Source: Octopus vulgaris
Taxonomy: Eukaryota
DNA: 64,000 nucleotides
Assembly (NCBI GenBank): GCA_951406725.2
Contig: OX597831.1
Span: forward strand, 53,196,001-53,260,000
Direction of reading: 5' to 3'
This document shows positions 16,515 to 56,451 of this stretch, piece by piece. The notes under the pieces were generated by a model. The model was not told the DNA's origin. It saw only the letters and a list, made by a program, of their open reading frames with translations, and searched no databases. Position 1 is the stretch's first letter; each line of letters starts with the position of its first letter. Made by a program: the position numbers and the translations under genes.

Positions 16515-17585
16515 CCCTTTCGTTACCAAACCGCCCAAAGCCGCCCGAAAAAATTTTGGTTTATGAAACCAAACCGCCCGAATTTACCTATTCATATTTA
16601 AATGAGAATATCAGAGCAAATCTCTTCAGTACATTCGTGAAAACACGTATTATACTTCGTAAACAGTTCAACTACAGTTTTGTACAATAATCGAAGTGTA
16701 ATTTTAATTCCGTGAATTTTGGGAGATTTTTTTCCGAAATTTGTTCCTATTGTGTTTTCAAAATTTGTAATTCTGACAAAAAATGGATACGAATTTCATT
16801 ATATCAAGCAGCGAGTCAGAATTCGAAGGATTTTCTACTGAAGACCTTCATAAATCTAACTCTATGACTGAAAAAAAAAAGCACATGGTATTTGATAATG
16901 AATTTGATGTTTCATTTTCCGAAAGTGAAAACAGTGAATCTGAGATCTCCGATAGCGATAAAGAAAACGAATTGGCACCTGAATGGAGTGAAAATTTAAA
17001 AACTGTTTCTTTCGGTGATTTTTCTGCAGAAACTGGACCAAGCCACAGACTTTCCCAGAAGGGTAAAGCCTTAGGCTATTTCTATTTACTTTTTCGAATG
17101 AGCCTATTTGAAATCATTACAGCGAAAACGAACCGTTACGCTAAACGTAAACAAAACGAAAGAAAGGATAGTTTGTTATTTCCCACAACCTTAAATGAAA
17201 TTAAGGCCTATTTTGCCATAAATATTATTATGGGTATCAGAAAGTTACCCAGAATAACAAATTCTATCGTAAAATTTTGTTGTATACCCAATTGAATATT
17301 AGCTAATATTTTCTATAGCGATGTTTGAACAAAATTTTAATAATTTTATATTTTGTGGAATTTACCTGTATCTACCTGCAAATAGAGTCACTTTGTGACA
17401 AAAATTATAGTATAGAATTGGTTGAGAATATTTCATTAAATTATCTTCCAAAAATCAGATTAATATATCGATAAATAAAAAAGTTATAGTTGTTTAATGA
17501 AACCAGACTAAATTTATGATTACGTTAGAAATTAATTGAAACACATAAGGGGTGTAATTTGGTCAGAAATATAGTAACGAAAGGG
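16515..17585 (+). mobile_element. Internally deleted piggyBac transposon
   Basis: Perfect 12-bp TIRs CCCTTTCGTTAC / GTAACGAAAGGG; TTAA TSD (16511-14, 17586-89); contains ORF 16783-17295. Confidence 0.93.
16783..17295 (+). pseudogene. Truncated piggyBac (PGBD-like) transposase N-terminus
   Basis: Acidic N-terminus, then F..F...LF..I...TNRYA..EIKAYFAINIIMGIRKLP, the start of the DDE_Tnp_1_7 domain; catalytic DDD region deleted. Confidence 0.85.
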
Positions 17586-19413
17586 TTAAATATCTAAAAT
17601 ATCTGAAATCAAAAATTGAATTTTACAGCTGTGCGGTTAAGAAGTTTGCTTCCCAGCCACATGCTTCCAGGTTCAATCTCACTGTGTGGCATCGTAGGCA
17701 AATATTTTCTACTATAGCCTCAGGTTGACCAAAGCCTTGTGGGTGGATTTGGTTGACAGAAACTGAAAGAAGTCCATCTTATTTGTGTGTGTGTGTGTGT
17801 GTGTGTTTGTGTCTGTTTGTCCCCCACCACTGCTTGACAACTGTTCAGAACTCATTTCTACATCTGAGTGAACTGGAGCAACGTGAAATAAAGTGTCTTG
17901 CTCAAGAACACAACACACAGCCCAGTCCGGGATTCAAACTCACAACCTCGTGATCGTAAGCTCGACACTCTAACCACTGAGCCATGTATGTATGTATATA
18001 TGGTGTTAGGAAGGGCATCCAACCTTTAAAACCCTGCCAAAACAGACACAAAAGTTTGGTGCTGGCTCCTGCCTGGCAAGCTCTTGTGAAACCATCCAAC
18101 CAATTCCAGCATGGAAGGTAGATGTTAAACGATAAAGATGATAATATCTATCATCATCATCATCATCATCATCTTTTAATGTCCATGTTCTATACTAGCA
18201 CGGGTTGGAAGGTTTGACAAGATCTGATGGGATCAAGGACTGCATTGTGCTCCATTGTCTTCTTTGGCATGTTTTCAGTCACTGGATACTCTTTACAGTG
18301 TGTGTTAGATACTTTTCAAGCAGACTCAGTGCTGAGTTACTGAAGCAGAAATAACATAGCAAATATTCTGCTCACTACCACAGATTTGCTTGTCAGTTGC
18401 TTGACCTTAACCACTTGAGCATGTCCCTTAGTGGCTGACAATGTGTGCATCTCTGATCATGAGCAGGAGTAGTGGGGGAGCATTATAGCCATGTGTTGGC
18501 CATACACACTTTACAGTGTGTGTTAGATACTTTTCTCATGCCACCAGCACTAGTGAGCTCACCATGAGAGAAGAGGTAAGAGTAGATATTTGTTGTAGAA
18601 GAGTTACATGGCTAGTCACATTTGGAAGAGAGGGTAAGAATGATCTGGTGGTGCTGAAAAGAGATAAAATGATGGTGATGAGGTGTCCAGCAGGGACCTC
18701 AAGGTATGAAGTAAGTGGAAGTGAATGGGGACAGAAGAACTAGGAGTATGGACGAGTGGGGGATTGCAAGCATTTATATGTGGAAGCAAGAAATGTAGGA
18801 ATAGAAGAATGAGAGGAAGCAGGCAATAATTGTAAAGATTGAAGGGTGGATATAGGGAGTGGTAGATAAGGGGTTGAGGATGACCAATGATGCATGAGTG
18901 GAGAGAAGGTTGAGAGATGCAGGAGAGAGCTGGGAGAGAACTGTAGGTAGTAATTATGATAATGTTGATGGGGTGGGGGTGAGAGAGATAACATGTGGAA
19001 TATGAAATATTTGTCTTGGACTAATATTCTTTTTTTTTTGTTGAATGATGATGATCATCATAGTTTAATATTTGCTTTCCATGCTGGCATGTGTTGGACG
19101 GTTTGACATGGAGCTGGCCAGCTGGGAGCTGTCCACAAATGGAAAAGGCACTCAAAAAACAAAATAATTAAAAGTAAAAAGAAAACTAACCAAAATCTTT
19201 AAAACAATTATTAACACCAAATTAGCCATCAAAAATACAACTCCAGTGGTCCAAAAGTGTTAACTGCCCTAAATGCACCTAGTTGCAGAATCTGCAACAA
19301 CTTCATTGAGACTTGTAGAAAATATTCCTTCAATAAGTGTTGTCCTACCAATTGTATGGAAAGACAGACAAAAAAAAAAATGATGATATTACTCTTTTTT
19401 TTTTTCATTCTAG

Positions 19414-28785: not shown

Positions 28786-30055
28786 TCAGGTTGGTGCAAA
28801 AGTAATGTCCAATTTAAAGATCTAAGGTAAAAATGAATAACCAATGGCTATGGAAATATTTATTCATTAACATACTCTCCATTGCTTTCAATGACCTCAT
28901 TCTATCTTTCAACAACCTTATAAATGCCTCGCTTGTAAAATTCTGTAGGTTTAGAACTAAAATATGAATCCAACTCATTTTCATTCTCTTCTCTTGTTGT
29001 TAACCTAAGTCCATCAAAATGGTTCTGTAGTCCTTGGAACAAATGGTAATCAGAAGGAGCAAGGTCAGGAGAATATGGAAGATGAGGTAGTATTTCCCAA
29101 GCAAGTTCTTCCAAGAGAGTTTTGGTCATTCGAGCTGTGTGAGGATGAGCATTATCGTGATGGAAGATGACACCTTTCTGTTAACCAAGGATGCTCGCTT
29201 TTGGCTCAGAACTCTTTTCAAACGACCAAGTTGCTCACAGTAAAGATTAGCATTAATTGTTTGGTTGTTGTCCAACAGCTCATAATGGATTACTCCTCTA
29301 ATATCCCACCATACACTCAACATGATCTTCCTTGGATGAAGTCCTGCTCTTGGTTGTTGAACTAGCTGTCCTCCTCAACTGATCCAAGAACGGCAGTGTT
29401 TAACATTATGGTAAAGAATCCACTTCTCATCACCTGTAACAAGCCTGTCTAAAAATGTTGCTTGAAAGTGTCACGAAAGTAATGATTGACAACAAGCAGC
29501 ACGCTGTTGTCGATTCTCTGGAGACAACTCGTGAGGGACCCATTTTCCAGCCACTGACACCATTCCAAGGTGTTATAGCTGGCCATGGTTGTATGGGCCA
29601 TGTTTAACTGTTCTGCAAGTTCTCTAGTGGTAACGGTAGGGTTCTCTGAAACAAGAGCTTTCAACATTTCAGAATCAAGTTTTTTTGGATGACCCTCTTT
29701 TGACTCTTCTTTCAAAGTGAAATCACCACTTCAGAAACGGGAAAACCACCTCCTGCAGCTTCTTTCATTTACTAAATCATCCCCATAAGTGCTCTGAATA
29801 GATCTTGCTGCCGCACTTGCATTAACTCCCCCATGAAACTCGTAGAGTAAAACATTTTTTATGTGATCTTTAGATGGGACAAACATGGTCGTAAAATTTT
29901 CTGAGAATTATATCCAGAAGTTAGATAATCTGAAAGAAAATAGTACAAATTAGACACAAAGATATCTTAAAACTATAAGAAGCAGTTAAAAAATTAATAA
30001 ATTTGCTCTGAAATTTTTTTTCTAGAAATCGGACATTACTTTTGCATCAAACTGA
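28786..30055 (-). mobile_element. Full-length decayed mariner (DD34D, Hsmar1/cecropia-like TIRs)
   Basis: 1,270 bp; TIRs TCAGGTTGGTGCAAAAGTAATGTCC / GGACATTACTTTTGCATCAAACTGA; TA TSD. Confidence 0.93.
28860..29886 (-). pseudogene. Mariner transposase pseudogene
   Basis: ATG at 29886; motifs WVPHEL, TGDEKW, MLSVWWD, YSPDLAPSDYHLF spread over several frames, with a premature stop near the C-terminus. Confidence 0.92.
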
Positions 30056-31180: not shown

Positions 31181-31223
<43 letters not shown>

Positions 31224-31758
31224 GAGTGAGAGAGCATGCCATCAAAGTGACACTGGGGTACAAATATACAAAACCCAATATACCCATCATGACTACCCGT
31301 CTGATAATGGTACACTAGATACATGCATTGCAACCATATATGTGCAACATGATGATTTCATATCAAGATAAACAGTGCATGACCGTGCAGGAGGAGCCCA
31401 TTTAGAATTTTCTTCAGGTCGAGTAGCCCATCCCACTCAAAAGGACCCTGAATAAGGTTTGTCTAAGGATGTTGAACAAAACACACATATTTCCAGAGGT
31501 GAATTATTCAAACCCCAAAGAATTCCTCTCAATACATGGCTATGATGCTCCCTCACTATTTCTGCTTGTAATCAGAGATGCACATATCATCAGCCACTAA
31601 GGGACATGCTCAACTGGTTATGGTCAAACTACTGACAAGCAAATCCTTGGTATTGAGCATAATATTTGCTGTAACTCATCTTTTACACCAAGACAAAACA
31701 TGTACATGATAACACTTCCAATCAGAAGATCAAAAACCATAAGAGCCAGTACCTGGTA
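31224..31758. repeat. ~550-bp element, copy 1, embedded in (ATT)n
   Basis: Aligns end to end with 31827-32380; bounded by ATT/ATC arrays. Confidence 0.85.
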
Positions 31759-31790
31759 TTATTATCATCATCATCATCATTATTATTATT

Positions 31791-31825
<35 letters not shown>

Positions 31826-31826
31826 T

Positions 31827-32380
31827 GAGTGAGCGAGCAGAGCATGCCATCAAAGTGACACTGGGGTAAAATATACGAAGCCCAGTATACCCATCATGAC
31901 TACCCGTCTGATAAGGGCACACCAGGCACATGCATCACAACCATATGTGCGCGAAATGGTGATCTCATATCAAGATAAACAGCACATGACCTTGCAGGTG
32001 GAGCCCAGTTAGAATTTTCTTCAGATCGAGTAACCCATCCCGCTCAAAAGGTCCCTGAATAAGGGTTGTTTAAGGATGTTGAACGAAACACCCATGTTTC
32101 CAGAGGTAAATTATTCAAACCCCAAAGAATCCTTCTCAACACATGGCTATGATGCTCCCCACTACTTCTGCTCGTGATCAGAGATGCACATATCGTCAGC
32201 CACTAAGGGACATGCTCAACTGGTTAAGGTCAAACAACTGACAAGCAAATCTGTGGTATTGAGCAGAATATTTGCTGTAGCCCATCTTTTATACCAGGAC
32301 AAAACAATGTACATGATAACACTTCCAATCAGTTAAGATCAGAAGCCATGAGAGCCACTGCCTGGTACTGCATCAGGGCA
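31827..32380. repeat. ~550-bp element, copy 2, embedded in (ATT)n
   Basis: Diverged duplicate of 31224-31758, followed by a ~120-bp (ATT)n array; an inverted fragment also occurs at ~18355-18500. Confidence 0.85.
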
Positions 32381-34583: not shown

Positions 34584-36328
34584 GTAAGAATTATTTTAGT
34601 TTGTTTTCTTCTTTTCTCTTTACCTAATTGCTTCTCTTCCTTCATCTTTTATCATCTTTTACTTGTTCCAGTTATTGGACTGCAGCCATGCTAGGGGTAC
34701 TGCTATGGAGGGTTTGGTAACAACGAATCAATCCCAGTACTTATTTTATAAGTCTGGTACTCATTCAATCATTCTCTTTCGCTGAGTTATGGGGATGTAA
34801 ATAAATCAACATCAGTTAAGTGATGATGTGGGGACAAACACAACACAAATACAAAGGCATAGACTCACTCACACACACACACACGCGCACACTTGCACGC
34901 ATACACTACATGATGGGCTTCGTTCAGTTTCCATCTACTAAATCCACATGCAAGGCTATGGTTGACCCATGGCTATAATAGAAGACACTTGTCCAAGTGC
35001 CCTGCCATAGGACTGAATCCAAAATCATGCAGCTGGGAAGCAGTCTTCTGAACCATGCAGCTATGCCTGCTCTGACAGATGATTTTAAAGTTAAATTTTG
35101 TTTTATGCTTCATGTAAGAGAACCATCCGAATGTGGCCATTGCCAGCACTGCATGTAAAAAGCACCAACTGATCGTGGCTGTTGACAGCCTCATCTGGCA
35201 CCTGTGCTGGTGGCACGTAAAAAGCACCCACTACACTCACGGAGTGGTTGGCGTTAGGAAGGGCATCCAGCTGTAGAAACACTGCCAGATCAGACTGGGC
35301 CTGGTGCAGCCTCCTGGTTTCCCAGATCCCAGTTGAACCGTCCAACCCATGCTAGCATGGAAAGCGGACATTAAACGATGATGATGATGATGATGATGTG
35401 GGTGTGTGGCCTAGTGGTTAGAGTGTTGCACTCACAATCACCAGATCATGGGTTTGCTTTCCAGACTGCGTGGCGTGTTGTGTTCTTAAACAAAACTCTT
35501 ATTTGATGTTGCTCTAGTGCTGTGTGGGGCTGGCATACCAAGGAATAGACCCAATGTTTTCTCTGTGTGTGCTGTAAGAGGTAACAGCAAGAGGTGAAGG
35601 TGAAGTAGGACTTGCACTCTGACCTCATAAAACCCTCATCAGTATTGACTGCACAAAACAGATCCATGGGTTGGAGGGTTGTTTGCCTGAGTGGTGCAAA
35701 GTTATCATCAACCAGGAGTAGGGAATCACCAACAAGTGATGGATGCAGTAATGTGCTGTTACAAGGCATGCCCTCATAGCAGTGGTGGTAGTGGTAGTTG
35801 TAGTGCAACTGATACTACTTATGTCCAAATCAGCACAAAAAACAGGCAATCTTACTTGCATTCCATCCATGTTTACACCAGCTTTGTACAAATAAAAAGT
35901 GGTTGAAAATATTATTAAAAAAATATATTTAACAATTTTTTTATTTGCAATTTTCAAACTTTGTTTTTTCTTTTGTATCTGCTTTTCATCTATACATAGG
36001 TAGGTAAGTCATAAAACTAAAATTTGTTGGTGCAACTACTTTTAATTGTCTAGGCTCTCTTTAATGTTATCCATTCAATCAAGAAATAAGGAGTGATGTT
36101 AGATGATGAGAAAGCTAAAGCCAATGAAGGAGTCTCTACATGGTTGCTGAAATCCGCTAGAAGTAGCAGCTAAATTCTTTTCAAAATGACGCCCTACCAT
36201 CATTTAGTGTCCTTTTTCCATGCTAGCGTGGGTTACACAGAGCTCTATCAGGTTCCAGTCTTATTTTGGCTTGGTTTCTATGGATGGATGCCCTTCGTGA
36301 TGCCAACCTCTCCAAGAGTGTAGGGGGT

Positions 36329-36610
36329 GCCTTTTATTTGTCACCAGCATGGGTGCCTTTTACATGTCACTGGCACAGGCGTCTCTTAAATGTCACTAGC
36401 ACAGGTACCTCTTATGTGTCACTGGTATGGGTACCATTTACATGTCACTGGTACTGGTACCATTTACATATCAGTTGCACAAGTGCCTTATATGTGTCAC
36501 CAGCACAGATGCCTTTTACGTGTCACTGGCACAGGTGCCATTTAAATGTCACTGATGCAGGTGCCATTTATGCATCACTGGTATGGTTGCCTTTTATGTG
36601 TCACCAACAC
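36329..36610. repeat. 26-bp minisatellite (~11 units) inside an antisense RTE-tail repeat
   Basis: Unit consensus GCCTTTTACATGTCACTGGCACAGGT repeated head to tail. Confidence 0.85.
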
Positions 36611-36729
36611 TGTCCACATCTACGATTTCACTTGACTCAGTGAGTCTTCTCAAGCACAGCAAATCATAAAGGTTTTGAAAAAAAAATGACTTGTTGGATA
36701 ACAACCACTTAATGTCTTAAAAGGTATTT

Positions 36730-42604: not shown

Positions 42605-43847
42605 CAGGATCTTGCAGATAAACTGAGACAATTTTCACGATGCATAAAACTGGTTATAAATACTAAAATAATGGCAGTAGACAAATATAATTTTAATGTA
42701 ACATTTATTACAAAAACATCACTCAATATGGCTGCACTTTTGGGCAATTACTGCCTCCATACAAAAACGAAATCTTTTTGCAGCTGCTGCAACTTGCTTC
42801 TTGATTTTGCATGTCGCATGCACGATGCAGGCCTTCAAACTGTTGACACTTGAGTGTAGTGAAGCATTGTTCTTTGCTTGAAGTACGCCCCATAAAAAGA
42901 TTTGGACTACTACTGGGCCAGATGTTGGCCCTCACAAAAAATGGCACCTTCTCACCAGGGAAGGCCTGTGTTGTTTTTTACCTATGGCATGATGCAGAAT
43001 CCTGGATAAGCACCACATTGTCAAGCCCAAACTTCTGCTCCATCCAAGGTAACAGAGAGCTCTTCAGGATGTCCAGATACTCCTTTGTGCCGATCTTCAA
43101 GCCAGACTCAATGTAGTGTGGACTCATGACACTTCCATCACTCACCATGGCTCCAAATACCATCACAGAGGCAGGATTCTTAGTCTCAAACATAGTGGGG
43201 ACATCAGAAGGGTTGTACGCAGTCACTCGAGAATTTTTGCAATACACTTCGGTGTCCACAGTGAACTTCTCATTCACAAACATGAGAGTTTTTCCTGCAC
43301 TTTGATGCTTGATGAATGACAAGCTTTGGGCAATTCTTGGCTCTAATTGCTTTTGCCTTGGCTGTTAGGAGGTGTCGGTGTCATCGAACATAGCTAGTTA
43401 TGGTTCCTGTTCACAGCTCTGGATATCATGGAAAGGGACACATTGTGTTTCTTTACAAGGGTTGTTATGGATATGGATGGGTTGGCTTCAATCGAGTGTT
43501 TGAAGCCTGTGAGAAACTTTAAATTATCCTTCGAATCACATGTTCTTTTCTGTCAATCTTTCCCTTTTCTTTAAATTGTTCAGACACACAATAAACTGTT
43601 GCTTTTGGAAGTTTTGTGAACTTAACAATTTCATTGGCAGTGTGCCTGGTGCATGCCAAAACAACAATGGTGGAATGATTCTGTTGTTCCATGACTTTCT
43701 GTTGTCAAATCAGTTTGCTATTTACCTGAAAAATAAAGAGGCGGATTAAATTTTCAAGCAAGTAAGGTTTTGTTTTAAAAGAAATGGCATGTTAAACCCA
43801 CTAAGTCAACTGCTTAAAATTGGTCTCAATTGATCTGCAAGACACTG
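42605..43847 (-). mobile_element. Tc1/mariner-superfamily transposon, maT/DD37D-like, decayed
   Basis: Imperfect ~31-bp TIRs CAGGATCTTGCAGATAAACTGAGACAATTTT / AAAATTGGTCTCAATTGATCTGCAAGACACTG with TA flanks; transposase remnants FVNEKFTV, SVMVFGAM, VLIQDSASCH, WPSSSPNL; inserted in a family B SINE. Subfamily call is inference. Confidence 0.85.
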
Positions 43848-53619: not shown

Positions 53620-55047
53620 GTAAGTTTCTCTTTTGACCATTTATCCTATTTCTATGTTATGTTTTTTTTTGTAAAATAGGTACATGTATCCTTGTGTATC
53701 CTGGTTTTAGAAGAGATATACTGAGATCCTAGAACTAAAATTGATGGCAGGAAAGGCATCTGGCCACTAAAATACTCTGACACAAAAGCCATCCAAGCTA
53801 TGCTAGCATGGGGACCACACCAAGTGTAGTATGCAAATTTCTTAGAGCACAAATGTAAACAAAAACATAGTCATGCGGGCATGGGTTGGATGATTTGACT
53901 GAAAGCTGGTAAGCTGGTCTAGGTTCCAATCTGATTTGGCATGCCCTTCCTAACGCCAACCTCTCCAAGAGTGTAGTGGGTGCTTTTTATGTGCCACCAG
54001 CACAGGTGCCAGTTATGAAACACTGGCATTGGCCACGACTGCAATCTCACTTGGCTTGACAGGTCTTCTCAAGCGCAGTATATTGCCAAAGGTCACAGTC
54101 ATTTGTCACTGCCTCCATGAGGCTCAAAGTTCGAAAGGTTGTCTCTGGGAAAATTCTCAAAGAAAATTGTTTGTTAAAAACCAGGGCTTTGCTCAGAATG
54201 CTGGTGGATTGCCAGACATGGTGTTTTGATTTGATTTGTTCTCCTCAGCGACAAATGCTCTGGACATTATCATCATCCATATCATTGTTTTCACATCTAT
54301 TTTCCTATGCTTGCATGGGTTAAAAGGAATTTGTTGTGGTGGATTTTCTATGGCCAGATGCCCTTCCTGTTGCCAACCTTCACCTGTTTCCAAATAAAGT
54401 AATATTTCCCTGTGACCAGACATGTCTTTGCATGGAAGATTGGAAATGAAGGACAGCACTTAGATGATGGTGAAACTCCTTTACAATTATCACATGAAGT
54501 CAGGACAAGGAGTCAGTTACATGCATGCACACACACACAAACATGATAGCTTCTTTCAGTTTTTGTCTACCAAATCCACTCACAAGCCTTTGGTCAGCAA
54601 GCTTCTTACCACACAGTTATGCCTGTGCTTGGCATAACTCAACAGGGTGCATAGCTTGGAGAGTCTCTCCAGGTTGAGCCACCCTACATTGAGAGTTCGC
54701 ATCTGTGATACAATAGACATGTGATTAGAATATCATAGGTGCCACTCAGTGGGACTGAACCTAAAACCTTATGATTTGGAAGCAAACTTCTTGACATGTA
54801 AGCTGTTCCTGAACTTATTATATATCATCATCATCATCATCATCATTTAATGTCCGCTTTCCATGCTGGCATGGGTTGGATGGTTCAATAGGAGCCGGCC
54901 AGATAGAAGACTACCCCAGGCTGTTGTGTCTGTTTTGGTATGGTTTTTACAGCTGGATGTCCTTCTTAACACCAACCACCCTGCAGAGTGGACTGAGTGC
55001 TTTTATATATATAATATATATATATTTGTATATTTTTTCCATTTCAG

Positions 55048-55241
55048 CTGTTCCAGCTGTTACCAAAATTGAATTGGAACTTCAAGCTCGATTTTCAATT
55101 GAGTTCCTACTAAGAGAATTGCCAAACCAATTTGCAACAGTTGCACGGGACATCAACATAAGAATATTTAAACTAGTGCAAGACTCCCCACAAGACGAAA
55201 TTCTGATTGGGGTGCCATATTCCATAATACGCAGCAGTGCA
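55048..55241 (+). CDS. SZT2: SZT2 coding exon 30
   Basis: tttcag / gtaagt; VPAVTKIELELQARFSIEFLLRELP..; phase 1 to 0. Confidence 0.9.
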
Positions 55242-55539
55242 GTAAGTATGGTTTGTTTCAATAGATAAAATGATTGGGGCAGCTGCTATATATGTCTGTA
55301 CAGAGGAATATATACGTGTGTGCATATATATATATATTTATAAATTTTGGACTATTGGGTATATGTTGATTAGTGTGTTGAAGTGTTGAGTAGAGAACTG
55401 GCACAGTTTGGGCTACCTGGTGTCATCCTCAGTTAGGGTATATTTCCATTGGACCTACTCCAAGAATTCTGCAGTTTTGGTTGAGATAACAGTAATTTCT
55501 TAAGTAACAAGAAGATGGATTTGGTATTAATCCTTATTT

Positions 55540-55642
55540 TGTACAATGATCATTTTGAACCATCCTGCTACTGTCCCTTATGAGTGAGACTCCTTTCAAC
55601 ATGTGTTGCATCAATTTTGCAGTTTGGGTCTCATCAGGTACA
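55540..55642 (-). ncRNA. Type I hammerhead ribozyme motif, degenerate copy (GAAA to AAAA)
   Basis: Minus strand TGTAC-CTGATGA-GACCCA..TGGTTC-AAAA-TGATCA-TT-GTACA. Confidence 0.65.
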
Positions 55643-56097
55643 TCTATACACAAAGGTTTGCATCTCACTAAAGATCCTGAGTTTGGCTGTCGTGTTGTTA
55701 TATGCCTGTCTGGTTAGGGAATTAAGCATCACTACAATTTTCAATTACTATTATCTTTTTTCAATAAGAGTTGCAAACACTTGTAAATACAGACAAATAA
55801 TTGTTGATAAAAAAATGTTTGTAGGCAAAGTTAATGGATGGACAGGGATGGATTGATATCATCTCTCTGTCTTAAACTTAATGTAACTCAATCTTTCCTG
55901 TCCATCCATTAACTTCCCCTATGAACTTTTTTTAAAATTTTTATCAACAAATATTTGTCTATATTTACAAGTGTTTGCAACTCTTACTGAAAAAAGATCA
56001 TAGTAATTGATGCTTCATTCCCTAACCAGATGGGCATATAACAACACGACAGCCAAAACTCAGGATCTTTAGCGAGACAGAAACCTTTTTGTATTGA

Positions 56098-56197
56098 TGT
56101 ACCTGATGAGACCCAGCCTACCAAATTGATAAAAAACATATTGAAAGGAGTCCCACCCATAAGGGACAGTAGCAAGATGGGTCGAAACGGTTGTACA
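56098..56197 (+). ncRNA. Type I hammerhead ribozyme motif (Penelope-like), stem III shortened
   Basis: TGTAC-CTGATGA-GACCCA..(62 nt)..TGGGTC-GAAA-CGG-TT-GTACA, followed by AATAAA. Confidence 0.75.
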
Positions 56198-56235
56198 AAA
56201 TAAAGATTAATACTAAATCCATCTTCTTGTTACTT

Positions 56236-56266
<31 letters not shown>

Positions 56267-56267
56267 T

Positions 56268-56308
<41 letters not shown>

Positions 56309-56419
56309 ATATACATATATTGTATGCATGTGTGTATATATATATAAAAAATGTATGTACATATATATATATATACATATATTGTATGCGTGTGTATATA
56401 TATATATAAATGTATGTAC

Positions 56420-56451
<32 letters not shown>

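Follow-up and report, generated by a model that had tools for sequence, protein, structure and literature searches.

A hammerhead-bearing foldback in a probable SZT2 intron of Octopus vulgaris resembles an inverted Penelope-like insertion

Sections of Craig et al. (2021, PMC8557442) on Penelope-like elements describe an inverted truncated copy with a one-sided tail of 30-40 bp and a bias towards (TA)n targets. The same source lists the hammerhead of Penelope-13_HM on both strands, and the longest loops II in the part of its Penelope table considered here are about 30-35 nt (Selaginella PLE-X1). Palindromes at head-to-head junctions appear in a portion of Arkhipova et al. (2013, PMC3846280), and hammerheads of truncated elements, paired on opposite strands 100-700 bp apart, in a portion of Cervera and De la Pena (2014, PMC4209133). 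For the Anolis Poseidon element PAc, the relevant sections of Frangieh et al. (2024, PMC11167929) describe cutting of both strands at ATT, a protein-assisted hammerhead, and reverse transcription from two start sites that define the tail. A canonical type I hammerhead is described for non-LTR retrozymes in part of Cervera and De la Pena (2020, PMC7229834), and 235 Hammerhead_1 matches are given for the giant squid in an excerpt of PMC6962438.

The locus described here is a foldback in a 64-kb stretch of Octopus vulgaris DNA (the window, to which all positions refer). We put the probability at roughly 0.8 that it consists of two mutated, 5'-truncated ends of a high-copy repeat joined head to head, left by an old Penelope-like insertion whose type I hammerhead has an insert of about 60 nt in helix II. 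Its features are collected in Table 1.

Table 1. Features of the foldback and its surroundings, with positions in the window, strand and the evidence for each.
Feature	Position	Strand	Evidence
Probable SZT2 exon upstream of the insertion	55048..55241	+	AG/GT bounded, open frame, translation
(AT)n microsatellite, left end; likely half of the target site	55324..55342	.	Tandem Repeats Finder
One-sided extension of ~145 bp (tail), part of the repeat	55343..55492	-	Contig depth, contig continuity
Left arm: copy of the repeat end, inverted and truncated on its 5' side	55493..55856	-	blastn, fold, contigs
Left hammerhead motif, broken by loss of G12, a mismatch in stem II and CpG decay within helix III	55540..55642	-	Majority letters
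Imperfect palindrome over the head-to-head junction, centre TGATATCA	55841..55872	.	Fold, junction-crossing contigs
31-nt spacer, mostly further 5' part of the right-hand copy	55857..55887	+	Alignment of another copy
Right arm, sense to SZT2: copy with 5' truncation that stops at the inner 3' end	55888..56244	+	blastn, contigs
Right type I hammerhead; core intact, helix III 3 nt short	56098..56197	+	Descriptor, Rfam 21.7 bits
62-nt helix II extension, inner hairpin 56150-56167	56116..56177	+	Folding, Rfam alignment, majority letters
AATAAA overlapping the 3' strand of the predicted second stem I helix	56199..56204	+	Majority letters, pair probability
(ATT)9.7, then long (AT)n-rich microsatellite, right end	56241..56442	.	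Tandem Repeats Finder

A foldback with arms of about 360 bp and a 31-nt spacer had been read from the sequence, and is confirmed by blastn, by folding and by contigs that cross its centre. In blastn, the right arm matches 55856-55493 of the opposite strand with 83.1% identity over 373 columns (E 1.8e-110), and a gapped alignment of 380 columns holds 315 matches, 40 substitutions (26 of them transitions) and 25 gap columns. The 752-nt foldback folds at -456.9 kcal/mol (z -33), and none of 20 shuffles folds equally well. As the centre is crossed by contigs in run X1 (0 differences) and run X3 (2 differences), an assembly artefact is ruled out and the junction is real. The insertion is common to two samples with different organism labels, X3 differing at two flanking places; the absence of exon coverage in runs X14 and X23 proves nothing. 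The palindrome over the junction has a folding energy of -12.9 kcal/mol in RNA form and of -4.6 in DNA form. Another family copy (X1 record 7) aligns across 55865-56076, and thus most of the spacer is element sequence. The extent first given, 55493..56244, is right for the arms and too short for the whole insertion, which runs left through the one-sided tail to an outer limit somewhere in 55343-55350. Neither a third nor a tandem copy of an arm is found by blastn within the window. The insertion site is biased in composition, with (AT)n on the left and (ATT)n(AT)n on the right, and the loose flanks of other copies are AT-rich. No target duplication is readable within the flanking microsatellites, because both ends of the insertion adjoin them.

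Contigs of four public runs were placed on 55040-56250 at a likeness of at least 80%. Three DNA runs yielded 1466, 1502 and 1479 placed contigs, as expected of a high-copy repeat, and the exon has flat, low contig depth in two runs (13 in X1, 38 in X3). Depth summed over the arms, relative to the exon, is about 35x (X1) and 28x (X3) at the centre and about 640x and 650x near the outer end; these values are summed contig depths and not copy numbers, and it is their shape that counts. This climb towards the outer (3') ends, about 18-fold, is the pattern of 5' truncation. At the 5' junction coverage is still about 30x that of the exon and persists beyond it, and one contig continues for 108 unlike letters past 55865. 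The climb and the persistence together fit truncated ends of a longer element.

These observations bear on the first-pass annotation, which had called the locus a non-autonomous Penelope/retrozyme-like unit. On a retrozyme reading the family would be a non-coding unit of about 0.5 kb, copied by Penelope enzymes and possibly passing through circular RNA, and the locus would hold inverted partial monomers. The hammerhead suits it, being of canonical type I and having, like those of invertebrate retrozymes, a helix III of 2 bp and a palindromic tetraloop, and so does the lack of coding sequence in the arm frames; animal retrozymes also derive from Penelope terminal repeats, often as monomers, according to part of a recent preprint (bioRxiv 10.64898/2026.07.22.740005). 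However, both the steep coverage gradient and the sequence beyond the 5' junction speak against such a unit, no head-to-tail joint is found among the best 15 of 284 joints, and the window has no tandem copy, so that we regard the retrozyme reading as improbable.

Within the roughly 0.5 kb present, no reverse transcriptase or GIY-YIG domain is linked to the repeat, Pfam gives 0 families for two arm frames, and no homologues of a 59-aa arm frame were found. The 5'-most arm codons look to us faintly like Penelope C-termini, and the protein search gave no support for this. A 35-aa frame had a single match library-wide (P0002), which was rejected as a repetitive low-complexity protein, and matches to microRNA families were set aside as generic hairpin likeness far below threshold.

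The family has two natural 3' ends about 145 nt apart, and the locus uses one of them on each arm. Tail depth resembles arm depth over 55350-55490, and 11 of 32 listed contig pieces connect 55350-55400 with 55582-55655. In other copies the repeat stops at 55493-55500, and unrelated AT-rich flank follows (16, 21 and 17 contigs, with flank agreement of 0.44-0.54). The outer part of the tail, 55368-55449, has three to four times the depth seen over 55450-55490, as if there were many very short copies from the tail end, or a second family that shares the tail.

The head-to-head layout recurs at other loci with different junction points. Same-strand skips from left to right arm are seen elsewhere at 55600-56032, 55623-55865 and 55635-56034 (three among the best 15 of 284 joints), each in both X1 and X3, with sides of 28-37 letters and one contig per run. 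In a further contig listing, 3 of the 12 rows listed, from a total of 45, are head to head as judged from their letters, a count that leaves out the joint 55409-55718 and 8 of those 12 rows (7 strand-ambiguous, 1 internal).

The right motif pairs 56098-56102 with 56193-56197 as stem I and 56110-56115 with 56178-56183, around 62 nt, as stem II; CTGATGA lies at 56103-56109, and GAAA, CGG and TT are followed by AATAAA at 56199. Cleavage would be predicted between 56192 and 56193. Every hammerhead part previously described for the right arm, including the long stem II, is thus present in the sequence, and the motif is recovered by a descriptor allowing a long stem II, a search that the earlier annotation had proposed. 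The descriptor comprised the core, a helix II of at least 5 bp with at most 120 nt inside, GAAA, UH, and a helix I of at least 5 bp. It finds one locus in the 64-kb window, the right motif (helix I of 5 bp, helix II of 6 bp); after shuffling, it matches a single window out of 100 (0.01 loci per 64 kb) and none of 5000 arms. A comparison with Rfam Hammerhead_1 (RF00163), also proposed, succeeds as an alignment and fails as a threshold match: 56097-56198 covers every one of the 45 model positions, with 60 nt inserted, but the score of 21.7 bits (E 0.0031) is below the gathering score of 34, at which Rfam gives 0 matches in the window. The shortfall is due to the helix II insert of about 60 nt, which is not modelled.

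The minus-strand motif claimed for the left arm holds up as a broken copy, intact in the letters of the family majority, although it has no Rfam hammerhead match. Folded alone, the right motif has z -2.9 and the left z -1.5. The two hammerhead cores are 466 bp apart on opposite strands; the distance from the motif is 150 nt to the inner end and about 290 nt to the tail end. Both copies bear private lesions, and both are missing one pair of the second stem I helix described below. Their probable inactivity, already suspected, agrees with these details, as the left copy is without the catalytic G and the right is 3 nt short in helix III.

Variants were taken from the best 40 of 251 rows, of which the 26 in or beside the arms were examined (2 flank, 8 tail and 4 low-depth rows were left out). 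The other arm has the family letter in 18 of the 26, indicating private decay; six (4 sites) are common to the two arms, and two (1 site) involve three letters. At three of the shared sites the two arms have the less common letter in common, which fits a single source RNA or the same source subfamily.

The earlier reconstruction of an intact GAAA-CGATCG core with a palindromic stem III is upheld by majority letters and by loose contig ends in three DNA runs. The intact letter is the family majority at 55556 (67-72% of depth) and 55559 (76-88%), which restores G12 and the stem II pair on the left, and A is the majority at 56089 (94-99%) and 55651 (87-93%). Majority letters also restore GAAA, the inner hairpin, AATAAA and the palindrome ACGATCGT. 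After 56189 (GAAACG), the loose ends read ATCGT, then T or C, then GTACA (37, 29 and 22 contigs in the three DNA runs), and the family has GUC beside GUU as predicted cleavage sites. The loose ends also reveal subfamilies, whose inserts differ in sequence and are similar in length.

With partial majority letters, helix II of the family is predicted to form with a pair probability of about 1, and to lead by way of two GA pairs to a helix of 4 bp and a pair of hairpins, giving a branched arm. A second helix I, CUUUAU with AUAAAG, is also predicted (0.55-0.70 for 5 of 6 pairs); its first strand is CTTTAT in the family and lies at 56085-56090 at the locus, and the other holds most of the AATAAA. 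This hexamer had been taken for a polyadenylation signal, a reading that its place inside the predicted helix in the family does not favour. Helix III of the family has 2 bp and a tetraloop, and G10.1 follows directly after A9. The label of minimal hammerhead is therefore withdrawn, as there is no unpaired base after A9 and the pattern is that of a canonical type I hammerhead with an insert. As a self-duplex, helix III has an energy of -10.0 kcal/mol in the family, -7.2 in the left copy and -1.5 in the right.

The inner hairpin has a loop, ACCCATAA by the majority letters of the family (56155-56162 on the plus strand, 55578-55585 on the minus strand), that repeats the 5' strand of helix II. 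To judge from the letters, this loop could pair with the 3' strand of helix II and so give an off conformation. One run's loose-end consensus is without this loop.

The insertion probably lies inside an SZT2 intron in plus orientation, as suggested by two upstream plus-strand frames that correspond, in the right order, to residues 2040-2092 (E 0.009) and 2168-2209 (E 0.05) of human SZT2. The exon next to the insertion has no database match of its own, and a possible exon at 63.9 kb gave none to SZT2. Helices I and II of the right copy have predicted pair probabilities of 0.65-1.0 when folded alone and 0 inside the foldback, so the proposal that the antisense copy masks the sense ribozyme is borne out in folding. 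Since transcription reaches the left arm first and duplex formation would spread outwards from the centre, masking would be expected. In the SZT2 pre-mRNA, pairing with the left arm is predicted to occupy the right copy, leaving both ribozymes dead or masked. What remains would be a passive duplex of about 360 bp, probably inert save for the formation of dsRNA. From general findings, such as those on lizard Penelope repeats (PMC5625713), ADAR would be expected to edit this duplex, and any effect on SZT2 is plausible. Run X23, the nature of which as RNA is only guessed, contributes 91 contigs that are all other family copies; its transitions are balanced (A>G 13, T>C 11, C>T 16, G>A 13) and uninformative on editing at the locus.

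It is very unlikely that the locus is kept as a regulatory device of SZT2, in which the antisense arm would gate sense cleavage or polyadenylation and editing or dsRNA-binding proteins would act as the switch. The catalytic core and AATAAA are kept in the sense arm, the insertion is shared by the two differently labelled samples, and part of PMC5625713 reports heavily edited Penelope repeats in lizard and a very strong hyper-editing signal in octopus. However, 40 of the 355 positions aligned between the arms are substituted, besides the gap columns, with a symmetric, transition-rich spectrum; both hammerheads carry private lesions, and each is missing a pair of the second stem I helix. The layout is moreover a family-wide insertion product, so no gene-specific purpose is needed, and nothing in the analysis shows a role for the foldback in SZT2 regulation. 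Least probable is an origin as a foldback DNA transposon or MITE whose terminal inverted repeats are long, or as an inverted duplication of local DNA, with the hammerhead as a passenger. The long inverted arms, short spacer and TA-rich target would suit such an origin. However, the family-sequence tail of about 145 bp on one arm only shows that neither arm is a simple copy of the other, the junction points vary among loci, coverage has a 3' gradient, and the flanking microsatellites show no readable target duplication.

A Penelope-type insertion could have given rise to this layout as follows. The element's endonuclease would nick a (TA)n/(ATT)n target on both strands, and each nick would prime reverse transcription on element RNA, starting at one of two sites about 145 nt apart. 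With one start site used per arm, only one of the two arms would bear the tail. Both cDNAs would stop early, and their 3' ends would be joined through the short palindrome at the junction. Cleavage by the hammerhead of the living element would fall at GUC/GUU, and the ribozyme would probably act as a dimer formed through the palindrome ACGAUCGU.

Other repeats occur in the window. At 31215-32367 (plus strand) there are two direct tandem units of about 550 bp with 88.8% identity, bounded by long (ATT)n/(ATC)n runs; a partial inverted copy of the unit lies at 18358-18498. On the minus strand, the units end in (AAT)n, like truncated LINE 3' ends, and no hammerhead core was found in them. A remnant of a piggyBac/IS4-type transposase is present at 16777-17295 (plus strand; Pfam PF13843, E 4.6e-9). 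The broken minus-strand frames at 28902-29730 and 42978-43364 presumably resemble Tc1/mariner transposases; Pfam gave no match for two frames from these regions (29449-29730 left out). An array of 26-nt units, 67-77% alike, lies at 36301-36623, and similar short units are found near 50.5-50.9 kb and 53.8-54.0 kb. Outside the window, a 20-mer had 0 matches in metagenomes, and a pattern scan of viral contigs also gave 0. The sole match of a two-part pattern in metagenomes (L001) was rejected as due to chance, being inside a bacterial gene and having no similarity to the window; we take this gene to be FtsH-like from its translation.

The family is worth keeping in view, with hundreds of related copies, a complete canonical hammerhead missed by standard searches, and two distant 3' ends. 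It is a test case for natural tolerance in loop II and for inverted insertion of the Penelope type, and it may supply many intronic editing substrates, because such insertions form long duplexes alone. A further, rather doubtful possibility is that this is a large unannotated Penelope-type family with a conserved and functional branched helix II module of about 60 nt (6 bp and 4 bp separated by tandem GA pairs, then two hairpins), together with a bulged second helix I. Such a module would replace the contact between loops I and II or dock an element protein. If so, long-armed hammerheads would lie below the Rfam threshold and outside published descriptors, leaving a whole class hidden; some Penelope clades said to be without hammerheads may have them; and the tail of about 145 nt would place reverse-transcription start sites four times further apart than described.

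In the literature searched (Repbase and Dfam lay outside the search), no description was found of this family, nor of a branched helix II of 60 nt in a Penelope hammerhead; longer helix II variants are possible in other work on Penelope/Terminon hammerheads. An origin from Naiad, which in part of PMC8557442 has an octopus member with half a hammerhead core and a (TA)n target (Naiad_Ovul, HHR_half_core), was rejected on sequence. Three Naiad 3' ends differ by eye, and nine short words gave 0 matches in the visible line parts of the consensus supplement for Naiad_Ovul, Naiad_Obim, Naiad_Omin and Hydra-1_Obim. The Hydra-1_Obim hammerhead, so far as the supplement displays it, also differs from that of the locus. 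On the minus strand of the left arm, a pyrimidine run and TAG (55643-55645) stand just before helix I, and one run's loose-end consensus reads TGG, which makes the TAG doubtful. Its likeness to the Drosophila virilis Penelope intron, which ends at helix I according to a section of PMC4209133, is doubtful to the same degree.

The pairs in the portion of PMC4209133 considered share with the locus two type I motifs on opposite strands, a palindromic helix III region and a G10.1-C11.1 pair. The minimal hammerhead has an unpaired base between 9 and 10.1 and an absent or minimal helix III, neither of which is seen in the locus family. In contrast to those pairs, helix III of the family consists of 2 bp capped by a tetraloop, and a structured 62-nt insert follows a helix II of 6 bp. 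RF00163 agrees with the locus in the core, helix I, the base of helix II and the short palindromic helix III; the locus differs from it, and from non-LTR retrozymes, in the 60-nt loop II insert and in having no tandem array at this site. As to Anolis PAc, the sections available describe an ATT-rich target, extension on both strands and two start sites, which would explain the ends of the locus and its one-sided tail. However, the PAc reading frame starts at stem II whereas the locus has no open frame after the motif, and the PAc start sites bound a short tail whereas the ends at the locus are about 145 nt apart. With endonuclease-bearing Penelope-like elements in general, the locus shares a head-to-head inverted copy with 5' truncation and a junction palindrome, a hammerhead 150-300 nt from the 3' end, a tail at one end, and a (TA)n target in which the duplication is not readable; it differs in the length of the tail (about 145 bp against 30-40 bp) and in that no reading frame is linked to it. 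The Penelope-type origin first suggested is supported by this anatomy (inverted truncated copies, one-sided tail, 3' hammerhead, microsatellite ends), from which membership in the Penelope-like elements is judged highly probable: four features agree, and the tail agrees in kind and differs in length. The layout itself is published and common, and the new details are the helix II insert of about 60 nt and a tail about four times longer than described.
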